A DNA stretch of 54,378 bases from an uncultured Oscillospiraceae bacterium (lineage in GTDB: Bacteria; Bacillota; Clostridia; Christensenellales; CAG-138): NCBI GenBank assembly GCA_964541465.1, contig CAZIQO010000003.1, positions 1 to 54,378 of the forward strand. The letters run 5' to 3'. Both the position numbers and the translations under genes were made by a program. Below are positions 7,623 to 33,456 of the stretch, in pieces; the stretch's first letter is position 1; each line of letters starts with the position of its first letter. Below the pieces are notes generated by a model. That model was not told the origin of the DNA and ran no database searches. It saw only the letters and a program-made list of their open reading frames with translations.

Positions 7623-7642
7623 GCGGCGGGCGGCCGCGGCCG

Positions 7643-7813
7643 CAAAAAGTTTTTTTGCAGGGGGGTTCCCCCTGCGCCCCACCCAAGTGACACGTCCCTT
7701 GGGAATCCCTGAACCCGCAGGTACCCTATTTCGGGGCGCTTGCGGAAGCGGGTTCTTAGGGCCGTTACGGCCCTGAGCGGTGGAGCCTCCAACGCATCCT
7801 TTTTTTCGACAAA
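7643..7813 (+). repeat. Multi-hairpin intergenic repeat element, copy 1
   Basis: Aligns with 12332-12502, 27755-27939 and the reverse complement of 23831-23967. It shares the hairpins TGCAGGGG..CCCCTGC, CCCAAG(G/T)GACA..TCCCTTGGG, CCGCA..TTGCGG and AGGGCCGTTACGGCCCT. It begins 20 nt after the prsW-like stop. Confidence 0.9.
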
Positions 7814-7840
7814 CCGGGCGGCCGAGAGGCCGCCCGGTTT
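7811..7840 (+). terminator. Hairpin AAACCGGGCGGCC-GAGA-GGCCGCCCGGTTT (terminator-like)
   Basis: Perfect GC-rich stem flanked by AAA and TTT. The 16 nt left of element copy 1 (7628-7643) repeat part of this hairpin. Confidence 0.6.
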
Positions 7841-12310: not shown

Positions 12311-12331
12311 CGGGCGGACCGCTTTTCCTGT

Positions 12332-12502
12332 CAAAAAAGTTCTTTTGCAGGGGTTTCACCCCTGCACCCCACCCAAGGGACACATCCCTTGGGAATCCCT
12401 GACCCCGCAAGCGCCCTATTTCAGGGCGCTTGTGGAAATGGATTCTTAGGGCCGTTACGGCCCTGAACGGTGGGAGACGCCTGCGCCCCTTTATCGACAA
12501 GC
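12332..12502 (+). repeat. Multi-hairpin intergenic repeat element, copy 2
   Basis: Full-length copy that begins 21 nt after the LRR gene stop. It ends with TTATCGACAAGC, as the other copies do. Confidence 0.9.
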
Positions 12503-12503
12503 G

Positions 12504-12536
12504 AAGCGATCCGGCGGATCATCCGCCGGATCGCTT
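12504..12536. terminator. Hairpin AAGCGATCCGGCGGAT-C-ATCCGCCGGATCGCTT
   Basis: 16-bp perfect inverted repeat between the convergent LRR gene (+) and lipid-kinase gene (-). It has no clean U-tract. Confidence 0.5.
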
Positions 12537-12754
12537 AAGATCGTCAAAAACGTTGCTTTTGACGGGGCAACTGCTCTTTGCCTCTCATCCTGCGGACTCC
12601 CGGGCGGCAAAGAGCATGAGGAAACCGCCCCTGCGGGGCGATCCGTTGTGTCGGCAAAGCCGACGCAACCGGAATCAATCGGCTAAAGGCTGCGGCCCTT
12701 AACGATTCCGGGGATTTTTTGACATGCGTGCAAATTTCCCGATGGCCGGCGCCA

Positions 12755-23672: not shown

Positions 23673-23830
23673 GGGGGACCTCCTTTGCCGAACCATCGGG
23701 CGATTCGTTTTTGTACGGAATCCGCGGCAAACCGCGCGTTTGCGGCAGCCGCGCAGGAACGCCGGATGCATTGATTCAGTATACCATGCGGCTGTGCCGC
23801 CGGAAAAGGCGCATTTTATGGCGCGGGCGC

Positions 23831-23967
23831 CAGCTTGTCGATAACGGTCCTGAAAACCCATTTCCGCAAGCGACTTCGAACAGGGCGCTTGCGGGATCAG
23901 AAATTCCCAAGGGACGTGTCCCTTGGGTGGGGTGCAGGGGTGAATCCCCTGCAAAAGAACTTTTTAA
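23831..23967 (-). repeat. Multi-hairpin intergenic repeat element, copy 3 (internally deleted, reverse orientation)
   Basis: The reverse complement aligns with copies 1, 2 and 4 through the third hairpin. It then jumps to the conserved end GTTATCGACAAGC and lacks the AGGGCCGTTACGGCCCT module. It starts 16 nt after the MFS stop, co-oriented with that gene. Confidence 0.85.
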
Positions 23968-23983
23968 CGGACCGGCGCCCGCC

Positions 23984-25980: not shown

Positions 25981-26451
25981 ATGAACGGACCGGATGAACC
26001 GGGCGGGACATATGAACTGAGCGTGATCGGCCCGGCGCAGCGGCGGCTGACGAAAGAGCTTCGCGCCTGCAATGCGCTTACCGCCCGATACGGCCTTATG
26101 CTGCCGGAGGCCGCGATTGGCGCGCTGGCGCAAAAGCGCGCCGACGCGCTCTCGGAAACCGGGCGCGTGGAATTCGGGGAGAGCGTGATTCCGAAGCTGA
26201 TCGAGGCGTTCTGCGATTCGCCGTATCTGATGCAGGACGAATACGAGGCCGTGCTGGGCGAACTGACCGACGCGTTTTATTACTTTAAAAACGAATCCTT
26301 CGATCTGCTTACGGACGACGAGCTGATCGCGGCCATGCGCACGAGCTACGACGAATCGGGCGGCTCGGTCGACGCGGTGATCGGAACGTCGCTGGAAACG
26401 CTCTGCCGCGGCAGGCGGTTCGGGGAGGAGACGGACGGGGATGACGGATGA
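25981..26451 (+). CDS. Hypothetical acidic cytoplasmic protein (conserved-looking, no assignable function)
   Basis: 156 aa from ATG 25981 with no TM segments. Codon usage and composition are consistent with the host. It overlaps the next ORF by 11 nt. Confidence 0.6.
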   Translation: MNGPDEPGGTYELSVIGPAQRRLTKELRACNALTARYGLMLPEAAIGALAQKRADALSETGRVEFGESVIPKLIEAFCDSPYLMQDEYEAVLGELTDAFYYFKNESFDLLTDDELIAAMRTSYDESGGSVDAVIGTSLETLCRGRRFGEETDGDDG

Positions 26452-27670
26452 CCTTATGCCGATGCGTTCACCGCAGATGCGGACCATGGACGCGGCGGAG
26501 AGGAAGGCGTTCGGGGAGAGCGTGCTGGCGCTGCTTGCCGAGCGCGCCGGCCGCTATACCATGGGGGACAGCGGTTCCGTGCGCGTGGAAACGGCAAAAC
26601 GGCTGCTGAACGGGATTCTCTACTGCGTCGATCTGCATCTGCGCGCCCATTCGGACGCCGACGCGTCCGCATCCTCCGTCCGGCGGCTCTACGAGGCGGG
26701 CGTGCGGGACGTGGAACGGCTGGTTCGCCGCGGACGGCTGCTGCTGAAACAGGCCGAGACGGCCCGGCCGCCCGTTGAGAATATTGCCTTCCGGGATACG
26801 CTCGCCGCGCTGCCGGCGTTTTTTTGCCGGTACGACGCGGCCTTCTTTGCGCACGAGATTCCGTGCGACATCGACTATCCGCTCTGTCGGCCCGCTGCGG
26901 AAACGCTGCGCGGCGTGGAATACGTCAACGACTATCTAAGAAGGCTGCTTACGGAAAGTGCGTTTCTTCGCCGGTTCGACGGCGACATGCTCCGGCTGCT
27001 TTACGAACGGTATTACGGGGACTTCGACGGGCTGCCGGTCAATCTGTATACGCCCGCGGCGGATGCCGCCGTTGGACGCGCGCTCGCGGACCGATCCGTG
27101 CAAAGGCTGTTTCTGGACGCGGCGGACGCCGCCGCCGTTCGGCGGCGCTTTGCCGGACGAACCGACGAGGACGGGCGGAGGATGCTTGCGGATGCTGCTG
27201 CGGCCGTCTGCCGCGAGCTCTCCATCGAAAGCGCGTCGGCCAGAGCGTATCTGAGCGGGACCGCGCTCGACCTGCTGCCGCGCATCCGGGCGGCCGGCGG
27301 CGCGCCGGATACAGGCGGCGTGTTCGTTTCGCAAAACGACGGAACGCCCACCGCCGGAACGGACGACGTTTTTACGGACGGACCCATGATGGACGACGAA
27401 TCGCTGCGCCGCCTGATCGGCAGACTGCAGGACTGCCGATCCGTCTCCGGCCGGCTCGCAATGGTCCGGCGCGGGGTGCGCTCCCTGCGGGACCTCGTGG
27501 AGATCCTCGACGCCGTGCCGGACGACGCGCTGCACGCTGCGCTGATCGGTTCGCTCGACCGGCGGGAACGGCGCGTGCTCGCCCGGCTCGCGGCGGAGCG
27601 CGCCGACGGCGGGGAAACGGAAAACGGCTGGGACCGCCTGATTCTGCACATGGAAAACGGGGATAGGTGA
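26441..27670 (+). CDS. Hypothetical protein, translationally coupled partner of the 25981 gene
   Basis: 409 aa, helical-looking, Arg/Ala/Asp-rich, with no TM segments. The start is uncertain: ATG at 26441, 26456 and 26462 are all in frame. Confidence 0.6.
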   Translation: MTDDLMPMRSPQMRTMDAAERKAFGESVLALLAERAGRYTMGDSGSVRVETAKRLLNGILYCVDLHLRAHSDADASASSVRRLYEAGVRDVERLVRRGRLLLKQAETARPPVENIAFRDTLAALPAFFCRYDAAFFAHEIPCDIDYPLCRPAAETLRGVEYVNDYLRRLLTESAFLRRFDGDMLRLLYERYYGDFDGLPVNLYTPAADAAVGRALADRSVQRLFLDAADAAAVRRRFAGRTDEDGRRMLADAAAAVCRELSIESASARAYLSGTALDLLPRIRAAGGAPDTGGVFVSQNDGTPTAGTDDVFTDGPMMDDESLRRLIGRLQDCRSVSGRLAMVRRGVRSLRDLVEILDAVPDDALHAALIGSLDRRERRVLARLAAERADGGETENGWDRLILHMENGDR

Positions 27671-27719
27671 TTCAGCCGGCCGCCGGCGCGGGAGCCTGCG
27701 TTCTGCCGGCATAAAAAAC

Positions 27720-27746
27720 GGGCAAAGCGGATGAACCGCTTTGCCC
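27720..27746. terminator. Hairpin GGGCAAAGCGG-ATGAA-CCGCTTTGCCC (left copy)
   Basis: 11-bp stem preceded by AAAAAAC. A near-identical copy lies at 27942-27968, on the other side of repeat copy 4. Confidence 0.6.
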
Positions 27747-27754
27747 GCAGGCTG

Positions 27755-27939
27755 TTAAAAAGTTCTTTTGCAGGGGTTTCACCCCTGCACCCCACCCAAG
27801 GGACATGTCCCTTGGGAATTCCTGACCCCGCAAGCACCCTGTTCCGGGGCGCTTGCGGAAATAAGTTCTTAGGGTCGTTACGGCCCTGAGCGGTGGTTTG
27901 GAGGCGGAGCCTCCAACAGCCCTCCTTGATCAACAAGCT
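27755..27939 (+). repeat. Multi-hairpin intergenic repeat element, copy 4 (longest copy)
   Basis: Contains all shared modules plus the complete TTGGAGGC-GG-AGCCTCCAA hairpin. It ends with TGATCAACAAGCTG. Confidence 0.9.
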
Positions 27940-27941
27940 GC

Positions 27942-27968
27942 GGGCAAAACGGATGAACCGCTTTGCCC
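27942..27968. terminator. Hairpin GGGCAAAACGG-ATGAA-CCGCTTTGCCC (right copy)
   Basis: 26 of 27 nt identical to 27720-27746. It lies between repeat copy 4 and the larC stop (convergent). Confidence 0.6.
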
Positions 27969-28056
27969 GGCCTGTAAAAGAACCTTATTCATGAATTCCG
28001 CCGCCTGCGCCTCCGGCAAACGAAGCGCCTTTCAGCGGTTCCGGTGCGTTCGGACG

Positions 28057-29367
28057 CTAATCTGCGTTCGGTTCGTTCGGTGTTTCGGCGCGTTGCGCCG
28101 GCTCTTCCCGCGCGGATCGCAGGACCTCGGCGAGCGGAACGTCCCGTTCCCGGGCGATCCGGGCCGCATCCTCGTACTCGATCTTTTTTCGCCGGACGCC
28201 CCAGCCGGACGATTCCTTCACGCGAACCGGACCGTACCGGGTGTCGGCCGTGCGTTCGGAGCGATCGAGCGTATACCGCCTGCAGGCGTATTCCCGCACG
28301 CCGAGCGAACTCGTGTGGCGGAAGATGAGCCGCGCCATGCGTTCGGCGTCCTCCTTGCGGCAAAGGCACGAGAGCAGCACGCCGGGGCGGTTCTTCTTCA
28401 TGCCGGCCGCAATCGTATAAACGTCCAGCGCGCCCGCGTCGAAGAGCCGCTCCTGCGCAAAGCCGACCGCTTCCGGCGTCATGTCGTCGAGATTGCACTT
28501 TAGCTCGACCACTTCGTCCCGCCCGTCGTCCGTTTCGCCCAGCATGGCGCGTACGCAGTTGACGGCTTCGAAGTCCTTTGTTCCCATGCCGTAGCCGACG
28601 CCCGAAATACGCATGACCGGCCGCTCGCCGAAGTCCTCGCAGAAGTACTTTAAAAGGGCTGCGCCGGTCGGCGTGCAGAGCTCGCCAAGGACTGCGCCGC
28701 CGTAGGTCGGCACGCCCTGCAGCAGATACGCGGTCGCGGGCGCGGGTACGGGCAGGATGCCGTGCGCGCAGCGAATCGTTCCGCTGCCGACGTGCACCGG
28801 GGAGGCCAGCACGCGTCCGGGCGCTAGCTCGTTGATCAGAAGGCAGACGCCGACGATGTCCGCAAGCGCGTCCAGCGTGCCGACCTCGTGAAAATGGATC
28901 TGATCGACCGGCTTTCCGTGCGCATGGCTTTCCGCGGACGCGAGCAGGCCGTATACCGAAAGCGCGTCGCGCCGGACCCTCTCGGGAAGCGGAAGCTGCT
29001 TAAGGATATGCTCGATATCGTGAAGACTGCTGCCGTGGTGATGCGCGTGTTCGTGCTCGTCGTCATGGTGCGCATGATCGTGCTCGCCCTCATGGTGCGC
29101 GTGTTCGTGCTCGCCGTCATGGTGCGCATGGTCGTGCGCCGCGTCCGGCTCGGCTTCCTCGACGCCGTCGATCCGGACGGACATGTGCGTTCCGGCGATG
29201 CCGCATTTGGCCGTGCGTTCGGCGCGCACCGTTACGCCGGGGAGGTTCAGAGCGTTCATCTTTTCAATAAATGTGCTCTGCGCCTGCGGCGGCAGAAGTT
29301 CAAACAGCGAGGCCGCCAGCATATCCCCCGCCGCGCCCATGCTGCATTCAAAATAAAGAATCTTCAT
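28057..29367 (-). CDS. larC: LarC, nickel-pincer cofactor biosynthesis nickel insertion protein (full-length fused form)
   Basis: 436 aa from MKILYFECSMGAAGDM. Motifs: IHFHEVGTLDALADIVG, His-rich tract, C-terminal ...GPVRVK... domain. The track ORF (775 aa) is an artefactual N-terminal extension overlapping larB. Confidence 0.9.
   Translation of the reverse strand: MKILYFECSMGAAGDMLAASLFELLPPQAQSTFIEKMNALNLPGVTVRAERTAKCGIAGTHMSVRIDGVEEAEPDAAHDHAHHDGEHEHAHHEGEHDHAHHDDEHEHAHHHGSSLHDIEHILKQLPLPERVRRDALSVYGLLASAESHAHGKPVDQIHFHEVGTLDALADIVGVCLLINELAPGRVLASPVHVGSGTIRCAHGILPVPAPATAYLLQGVPTYGGAVLGELCTPTGAALLKYFCEDFGERPVMRISGVGYGMGTKDFEAVNCVRAMLGETDDGRDEVVELKCNLDDMTPEAVGFAQERLFDAGALDVYTIAAGMKKNRPGVLLSCLCRKEDAERMARLIFRHTSSLGVREYACRRYTLDRSERTADTRYGPVRVKESSGWGVRRKKIEYEDAARIARERDVPLAEVLRSAREEPAQRAETPNEPNAD
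29029..29136 (-). repeat. In-frame 27-nt (9-aa) tandem repeat x4 encoding the His-rich tract of LarC
   Basis: The protein reads HDHAHHDGE-HEHAHHEGE-HDHAHHDDE-HEHAHHHGS. The DNA shows CATGGTGCGC(A/G)TG(A/T/G)TCGTGC periodicity. Confidence 0.85.
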
Positions 29368-32036: not shown

Positions 32037-32106
32037 CGCGCGGGTTTGAGTCCGTTTGAAGGAAAAGCCAAAGAGATGAACGCCCCAAGGCGCCTATTTC
32101 TTTGGG
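32037..32106. repeat. ~68-nt direct repeat R1 (degenerate copy of the tRNA-Leu-adjacent hairpin region)
   Basis: CGCGCGGGTTTGAGTCCGTTTGAAGGAAAAGCCAAAGAGATGAACGCCCCAAGGCGCCTATTTCTTTGGGG aligns at roughly 85% identity with 33304-33372. Confidence 0.8.
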
Positions 32107-33190: not shown

Positions 33191-33210
33191 TGGTGCCGAA
33201 GGTGGGACTC
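33191..33210 (-). repeat. 20-nt duplicate of the tRNA-Leu 3' end (att-like remnant)
   Basis: TGGTGCCGAAGGTGGGACTC is identical to 33370-33389, which covers the CCA end, the acceptor 3' strand and part of the T-arm of the intact tRNA. Confidence 0.85.
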
Positions 33211-33303
33211 TCCGCTCAGGCCGCTCGCCGCTTGCGCGCTGCGCCGCGCGGCTGCGGGCGTTCGCTTCCCGGCCGCGAAAAACGATCCGCCGGATCGTTT
33301 TTC

Positions 33304-33372
33304 ATCGCGGCTTCGAGTCCCTTTGAAGGGAAGACCAAAGAGATGAGCGCCCAAAGGCGCTCATCTCTTTGG
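33304..33372. repeat. ~68-nt direct repeat R2, including a perfect 17-bp hairpin abutting the tRNA-Leu 3' end
   Basis: CCAAAGAGATGAGCGCC-CAAA-GGCGCTCATCTCTTTGG at 33335-33372. It probably acts as the tRNA terminator on the minus strand. Confidence 0.8.
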
Positions 33373-33456
33373 TGCCGAAGGTGGGACTCGAACCCACACG
33401 GTATCGCTACCAACGGATTTTGAGTCCGTCACGTCTGCCAGTTCCATCACTTCGGC
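33370..33456 (-). tRNA. tRNA-Leu (anticodon CAA), class II with long variable arm, encoded CCA
   Basis: The reverse complement is GCCGAAGTGATGGAACTGGCAGACGTGACGGACTCAAAATCCGTTGGTAGCGATACCGTGTGGGTTCGAGTCCCACCTTCGGCACCA. It has a 7-bp acceptor stem, T-arm GTGGG-TTCGAGT-CCCAC and anticodon loop CUCAAAA. Confidence 0.95.

Follow-up and report, generated by a model that had tools for sequence, protein, structure and literature searches.

A multicopy repeat at gene 3' ends

The window, by which we mean the whole 54,378-nucleotide stretch of DNA that was analyzed, has a GC content of 61.9% and carries four copies of a repeat at about 7643-7816 (+), 12324-12504 (+), 23831-23975 (−) and 27748-27940 (+). 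The genes upstream of these copies encode a PrsW protease, an LRR protein, an MFS transporter and a DUF6179 protein, which confirms the assignments (PrsW-like, LRR, MFS and a gene at 26441-27670) made in an earlier note from the sequence alone. The copies begin 17 to 85 nt past the stop codon of the upstream gene, almost exactly the 16 to 85 nt given before, and the genes on either side of copies 2 and 4 are convergent. All four align over ~170 to 190 nt, with three direct copies and one inverted copy recovered, and the motif CCCAAGGGACANNTCCCTTGGG and the 5' motif AAAGTTCTTTTGCAGGGG occur four times each, compared with 0.00 to 0.03 occurrences expected from shuffled sequences. Both the positions of the four copies and the description of a genuine multicopy, multihairpin intergenic repeat were therefore borne out. 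The repeat is labeled MITE-A here, a name that anticipates the interpretation preferred below. Its copies and, for copy 2, its terminal inverted repeats (TIRs) and hairpins (H1 to H5) are as follows:

7643 to 7816, plus strand: MITE-A copy 1; outer left TIR missing, H5 deleted in part
12324 to 12504, plus strand: MITE-A copy 2 (nhmmer score 181.6), the element first described in the earlier note
12324 to 12339, plus strand: left TIR of copy 2, TTTCCTGTCAAAAAAG
12346 to 12366, 12372 to 12393, 12406 to 12434 and 12446 to 12466, plus strand: hairpins H1, H2, H3 and H4 of copy 2
12473 to 12485, plus strand: H5 of copy 2, degenerate
12492 to 12504, plus strand: right TIR of copy 2, TATCGACAAGCGA
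23831 to 23975, minus strand: MITE-A copy 3; internal deletion, with the 3' arm of H4, H5 and the linker gone
27748 to 27940, plus strand: MITE-A copy 4 (score 206.7), the most complete of the window copies

The modules follow one another in the order described previously, except that copy 3, which had been thought to share all of them, is internally deleted and lacks the segment from GTTA to TCGACAAGC. Copy 4 has the ends CAGGCTGTTAAAAAG ... GATCAACAAGCTG. When all copies were lined up with 60-nt flanks, conservation began ~8 to 12 nt to the left of the original boundary, which had been drawn that much too far in, and stopped 2 to 4 nt to the right of the original right boundary (consensus, cAGcCTGTCAAAAAAGTTCTTTTGCAGGGG ... 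GGAGGCGGAGCCTCCAACG..CCCCTTtATCGACAAGCtG).

Element ends and flanking hairpins

The redrawn termini, 5'-CAGyCTGTCAAAAAAG on the left and TTATCGACAAGCTG-3' on the right, form imperfect TIRs. Of 15 positions in the left end (CAGYCTGTCAAAAAAG), 12 match CAGCTTGTCGATAAAG, the reverse complement of the right end, and the left 62 nt match the reverse complement of the right 62 nt in 43 of 68 alignment columns. The score of this extended TIR (10) lies 5 standard deviations above that of shuffled sequences (−12.4 ± 4.4; maximum of 1 in 500 shuffles). The inverted similarity reaches ~55 nt inwards, with H1 as the left arm and H5, previously described as a "variable GGAGGC..GCCTCC stem," as the right arm; H2 to H4 are three more hairpins between the arms. 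Pairing in the TIRs was preserved in 69% of cells. Both ends carry the hairpin module, as a plain long TIR, in a sister subfamily (L002 and L048) and in an AT-rich family from other samples (L052). The earlier statements that the ends do not resemble each other, that TIRs are lacking and that the repeat is not a classical MITE do not hold, given these TIRs and the apparent target-site duplications described below.

Outward-facing −35-like hexamers (TTGACA and TCGACA) occur in both ends, a feature of many IS elements. At copy 3, the right end and its flank contain a promoter-like site, TCGACA-17-TAAAAT (23813-23841, minus strand; 10/12 matches), which faces the downstream GH2 glycosidase gene, and a weaker equivalent is present at copy 2 (12494-12522).

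A strong GC-rich hairpin (about −15 to −28 kcal/mol) adjoins both ends of nearly all copies. These flanking hairpins vary between loci, while within a locus the left and right hairpins often have the same sequence in the same orientation. In the window, the flanking hairpins (putative target hairpins, no strand assigned) and a second element, MITE-B, lie at the following positions:

7628 to 7643: hairpin of copy 1, partial left copy, GGGCGGCCGCGGCCGC
7816 to 7835: hairpin of copy 1, right copy, GGGCGGCC-GAGA-GGCCGCCC, then GGTTTCTG
12311 to 12323: degenerate partial copy of the copy 2 hairpin, CGGGCGGACCGC, left of the element
12505 to 12535: hairpin of copy 2, AGCGATCCGGCGG-ATCAT-CCGCCGGATCGCT, GC-rich and locus-specific, abutting the right end
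12536 to 12730, plus strand: MITE-B, ~195 nt, multihairpin and non-coding, adjoining the copy 2 hairpin and apparently inserted at it
27719 to 27747: hairpin of copy 4, left copy, 29 nt, CGGGCAAAGCGG-ATGAA-CCGCTTTGCCCG, with AAAAAA before it
27941 to 27969: hairpin of copy 4, right copy, 28/29 identical to the left copy, loop in the same orientation

Read on the minus strand, the left hairpin of copy 4 has 13 pairs together with TTTTTT and serves the convergent LarC gene as a terminator. Copy 3 is flanked by the short GC palindromes GGCGGGCGCC and GGCGCCCGCGCC. Direct flank-to-flank alignment scored above the 99th percentile of cross-copy pairings for 12 of 25 copies, with own-copy scores of up to 26 compared with a cross-copy maximum of 12. 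Besides copy 4, close left/right identity was found in L040 (23/24) and L014 (28/32), and hairpins were similarly matched in L020, L025, L037, L028, L024, L021, L007 and L034. The duplicated segment extends from hairpin foot to hairpin foot (17 to 33 bp). As the loops share their orientation in both hairpin copies, the duplication is direct, and as the duplicated hairpins differ between loci, their source appears to be the target rather than the element. Of 25 copies, 14 have A-runs ahead of the left hairpin and 7 have T-runs behind the right one.

From the filled sites at hand, the simplest reading of these duplicates is that they are target-site duplications, variable in length, of an intrinsic-terminator hairpin. 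Empty sites were not recovered; the closest DUF6179 homologue, only 54% identical, is too distant for intergenic comparison, and the window organism stands isolated in sequence space. For roughly half of the copies, no likeness can be recognized between the left and right hairpins; decay or something else could be responsible. Tandem arrays fit with duplication of terminator hairpins: in L042, two elements have a single hairpin between them (A-hairpin-A), and L001 and L012 carry a partial hairpin, MITE-A', a hairpin, MITE-B and a hairpin with a T-run, in that order, the middle and right hairpins being identical.

The ends of MITE-B are of the same type as those of MITE-A (..GATCGTCAAAAAC ... 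GATTTTTTGACATG; GAGACCGTCAAAAAAC ... TTTTTTGACAAGCTGA; GTCAAAAA.../...TTTTTTGAC). Copies of MITE-B were found in L001, L002, L006, L012 and L029, and the copy in L002 lies between two duplicates of a 27-nt hairpin. That copy 2 and L001 might be syntenic was considered and discarded: the flanking genes are unrelated, and the 184-nt block in common is MITE-B. An AT-rich MITE of ~290 nt occurs in other metagenomes (JAEEGL/ODAI; L010, L013, L027, L033, L044, L045, L050, L052 [about 140-440] and L053). It has a terminal module in common with MITE-A, TTGACGGGGAGTTTTTTTGCAGGGG-loop-CCCCTGCACCCCGCCCA, and clear TIRs, ATGATAATTTGACGGGG / CCCGACAAATTATCAT; many of its contigs break inside the element. 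L048:3146-3306 and L002:7036-7183, from two near-identical strains, have flanks that are 99.3 to 99.6% identical around a ~150-nt interior that is inverted and only ~83% identical, which points to recombination between long hairpin-bearing TIRs with conversion from other copies, or to independent reinsertion.

A REP/BIME- or BOX/SPRITE-like mosaic repeat could also be envisaged, with the flanking hairpins as mosaic modules; instead of a TIR-recognizing DDE transposase, a RAYT-type (HUH Y1) enzyme, recombination or gene conversion would account for its spread. Such a repeat would match the modular build, with some modules in common among subfamilies (L001, L012, L002, L048 and the JAEEGL family), and the inverted interior of the L048/L002 pair, as a sign of recombination among copies. 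It would likewise match the tandem clusters of different repeat families, which have been reported for pneumococcal BOX, RUP and SPRITE (2024 MITE review). However, hairpins that are locus-specific, with the cross-copy scores so far below the best own-copy scores, cannot be common modules. Furthermore, the ends are defined and inverted, a RAYT or Y1 gene was not seen, and REPs are units of 20 to 40 nt rather than 190-nt elements with TIRs. We regard a mosaic origin as quite improbable. REP/REPIN repeats proper (a 20- to 40-nt palindrome with a RAYT) were rejected, the repeated unit being ~190 nt and the flank palindromes not being conserved between loci. MITE-A does resemble REP/BIME, REPIN and SPRITE in that GC-rich, terminator-like extragenic palindromes lie at gene 3' ends and cluster with other repeats. 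In contrast to MITE-A, those are short, RAYT-linked units without TIRs or duplications, whereas the terminator-like hairpins at MITE-A would be the target and not the repeat.

Copy number, gene context and fold

An exact-pattern scan for the first hairpin gave two matches among 185,579 species genomes, a collection that seemingly lacks the window organism; both were in one related MAG, Eubacteriales bacterium AMR_MDS_3085. The pattern scan of metagenomes returned 51 contigs, and that of viral contigs returned no match. A profile search of ~223 kb of metagenome contigs identified ~45 distinct copies or fragments, including 28 full-length copies; 11 of those identified had not been seeds from the pattern scan. 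As the window's own contigs in the source samples were not returned by the scan, these counts are lower bounds. The density, roughly one copy per 14 kb, equals that of the window and supports the high genomic copy number previously predicted from it. L004, L011, L047 and L051 match the hairpin pattern only, by chance, and were rejected as family members. BLAST of copy 4 with its flanks against plasmids gave a single insignificant 43-nt match, and against phages it gave no match.

Metagenome matches came mostly from three digester-type data sets: Ga0116151/152, ERZ795053 (~3-4x coverage). A look-up of the DUF6179 protein led to contigs from the same digester data sets with identical gene order and with copies 3 and 4 present, and these two copies occupy the same positions in three other assemblies of the same organism. 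The organism is represented in JGI 3300010349 and 3300009778 and in ENA ERZ795053. As the same data sets carry the identical gene order with copies 3 and 4, we infer, also from sample, coverage and GC content, that most fetched copies are paralogues from the window's own organism. The copies lie at unrelated loci, adjoin unrelated genes and are 73 to 88% identical (mean, 82%). On sequence grounds the MITE-A family appears to be old, with no sign of recent movement in this genome. Irregular copies were observed at L015:3202-3372 and L032:613-783; the L015 element contains a copy of its flanking hairpin, positioned ahead of a second right-end fragment, which suggests that insertions were nested or rearranged.

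Gene context was derived from a GC3-based gene call, with critical cases checked by Pfam, for ~33 copies from apparently the same organism. Contexts were convergent (10), tandem-sense (8) and tandem-antisense (6), and none was divergent. Neighbors were verified by Pfam for five of the six antisense copies (L009, L021, L029, L034 and L038). The location at gene 3' ends proposed in the earlier note thus extends across the family, and this constant position supports its prediction that the element is carried into 3' UTR or intercistronic RNA. Co-orientation with the upstream gene, claimed there to be invariable, applies to the four window copies, but not to the family, in which no orientation bias was found, a result that the note itself had said would count against its reading. 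As tandem contexts split into 8 sense and 6 antisense, MITE-A is tied to gene 3' ends and not to a strand, and the co-orientation of four of four copies in the window is a small-sample effect.

The folding energy of copy 2 together with the hairpin beside it is −115.6 kcal/mol, compared with −71 ± 4.6 kcal/mol for shuffled sequences (z = −9.8). H1 to H5 were kept in 88 to 100% of cells, the invariance of H1 being an ascertainment effect of a scan pattern that demanded it. Pairs changed on both sides numbered 14, compared with 8.8 ± 2.0 in shuffles, and all measures lay above slid controls; indeed, several differences between copies fall in loops or preserve pairing, as had been observed for the window. 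Conservation was higher in stems H2 to H5 (0.92) than in loops and linkers (0.85; P = 0.007). Mismatches in stems comprised 45 G:T and 34 A:C, with no strand asymmetry. As the two types are balanced, there is no pointer to selection on one RNA strand. At the gathering threshold, only a tRNA passed in an Rfam search of the whole window, and a search with copy 2 in E-value mode (E ≤ 10) gave nothing relevant (best E-value of 1, to an unrelated lncRNA model), in agreement with the earlier failure to recognize a named RNA family.

These results bear on a reading of the repeat, akin to that of the earlier note, as a functional structured 3'-UTR RNA module (a stabilizer, processing site, protein-binding platform or termination modulator) that has spread but is kept by selection on the sense-strand RNA. 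Such a module would agree with the co-oriented upstream genes of all four window copies, the very stable fold, the compensatory changes in H2 to H4 with stems conserved above linkers, and a site between stop codon and outer terminator that guarantees transcription. A purely selfish decaying element does not need the stem conservation and compensatory changes in H2 to H5, which counts against interpretation as a MITE. However, six copies are antisense to both tandem neighbors, G:T and A:C mismatches are about equally frequent, and an Rfam match is lacking. Moreover, TIRs and target duplications account for the spread without any RNA function, and palindromic stems occur equally on the two DNA strands, and their conservation may reflect the needs of transposition. 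We attribute the conservation of the stems to the DNA palindromes as such or to source copies competent for transposition; the RNA may have a role as well. An RNA module maintained by sense-strand selection appears improbable, and the description of the repeat as an oriented 3'-UTR RNA and not a MITE is largely wrong.

Proposed insertion mode and comparison with known elements

It is quite likely, judging from the filled sites, that the repeat is a small non-coding transposon (MITE-A) that targets and duplicates terminator hairpins by means of a putative transposase. The structural features of a MITE are present: a length of about 171 to 197 bp without coding capacity, TIRs, an apparent direct target-site duplication and many dispersed copies. 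MITE-A represents a new family of MITEs and has one or more sister families, including MITE-B; the kind of element is known, and its mode of insertion is uncommon.

In the proposed mechanism, a non-autonomous DNA transposon of about 180 to 195 bp would be mobilized in trans by a putative transposase. As two to three non-coding families have ends in common, a single transposase type may act on them in trans. The junctions suggest that targets would be chosen by structure or symmetry, namely, GC-rich intrinsic-terminator palindromes at gene 3' ends. One strand transfer at each foot of the palindrome, with gap repair afterwards, would leave a full hairpin copy on each side and hence a target-site duplication of 17 to 33 bp, the length of which tracks the hairpin. 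The A-run and the T-run would stay outside the duplication, so that an outer terminator survives for each direction of transcription, and MITE-A would come to sit within the 3' UTR in either orientation. As outer terminators would survive and the element would sit in a 3' UTR, insertion could be nearly neutral, which would enable the family to reach its present density. Repeated strikes on duplicated hairpins would yield arrays of the type hairpin-MITE-hairpin-MITE-hairpin.

Pfam searches of 38 window ORFs (most predicted genes, minus a few short ORFs and MarR/DUF6323) revealed no transposase, as already stated in the earlier note, and no integrase. Likewise, neither the window nor ~250 kb of related contigs yielded an autonomous partner or a transposase, no convincing pair of inverted end motifs 0.6 to 3.5 kb apart was found at any of the loci, and the fetched loci contained no ORF-bearing relative.

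Class C group II introns insert beside terminator stem-loops. This terminator-adjacent insertion, together with the highly structured nature of the repeat, would be expected of a remnant of a retroelement or group IIC-intron-like element homing to terminator hairpins. However, there was no group II intron or other Rfam match, a reverse transcriptase was not found nearby, and group IIC insertion does not duplicate the hairpin. Such an origin is effectively refuted by the TIRs and the hairpin duplication, and we consider it extremely improbable. A remnant of an IS200/IS605-type PATE or omega-RNA, for which neither TIRs nor target duplications are expected, was rejected, both being present here.

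The closest counterparts to the preferred terminator-targeting transposon are IS1630 of Mycoplasma fermentans and ISMhom-1 (IS30 family). These elements are reported to have TIRs and to duplicate inverted-repeat or stem-loop targets of variable sequence (16 to 26 bp), to which the whole-hairpin duplication of MITE-A (17 to 33 bp, with a length following the hairpin) would correspond. Both are autonomous IS elements of 1.2 to 1.4 kb from AT-rich Mollicutes, whereas MITE-A is a 190-bp non-coding element in a Clostridia-like organism with 62% GC. By analogy, MITE-A behaves like an IS1630-type element, the likeness being one of insertion mode.

IS1272/TnSha1 (IS1182 family, staphylococci) also targets terminator hairpins, in both orientations and without primary-sequence specificity. 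However, IS1272 deletes or replaces part of the hairpin and makes no target duplication, whereas MITE-A appears to duplicate the hairpin intact, and an IS1272-like mode was ruled out for this reason. The IS1202 subgroup (IS1202 family; originally discovered in a Firmicute) makes similarly long target duplications (27 to 28 bp), but their length is fixed, which rules out an IS1202-like mode for an element whose duplication varies with the hairpin, and hairpin specificity is not reported for this subgroup. Comparison with the E. coli H-repeat revealed no real similarity to ISAs1-type "CAGGG" ends. Among small elements, the Correia/NEMIS, RUP, ERIC, bcr1 and Chunjie MITEs resemble MITE-A in having TIRs and no ORF, in being multicopy, intergenic and strongly folded, and in being cotranscribed with their neighbors, but their duplications are short (2 to 10 bp). 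A 2024 review of prokaryotic MITEs mentions no MITE that duplicates whole terminator hairpins.

Documented cases of structure-directed insertion at terminators with duplication of the whole hairpin are confined to a few autonomous IS elements. A MITE family that does so at high copy number would, if true, offer dozens of independent junctions as a clean natural data set on the reading of DNA palindromes by a transposase, and would show a mobile element spreading while leaving transcription termination intact. Such repeats also break metagenome assemblies (many fetched contigs end inside copies) and can be mistaken for structured RNAs or regulatory motifs, and their recognition avoids false ncRNA calls. 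More speculatively, and with a low probability, MITE-A, MITE-B and the related AT-rich family may be the mark of an uncharacterized transposase lineage in uncultured Clostridia that recognizes terminator hairpins or cruciforms, cuts at their feet and uses terminators as safe harbors; alternatively or additionally, H2 to H4 may be kept for an effect on mRNA stability or termination.

Other repeats were also observed in the window. A tandem repeat with a 27-nt period lies at 29032-29164; read on the minus strand, it codes for a segment rich in His, Asp and Glu that is located upstream of the LarC (Ni_insertion) domain. A 67-nt unit occurs in two 84%-identical copies (32039-32105 and 33306-33372) and contains a 38-nt perfect-stem palindrome, CCAAAGAGATGAGCGCC..GGCGCTCATCTCTTTGG; its copies bracket the dapF gene, and one of them abuts tRNA-Leu(CAA), which is encoded on the minus strand (33370-33456). 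Approximately 160 nt downstream of this tRNA lies a ~20-nt copy of its 3' end (TGGTGCCGAAGGTGGGACTC; 33191-33212), which looks like a scar or att remnant of an integrated element.
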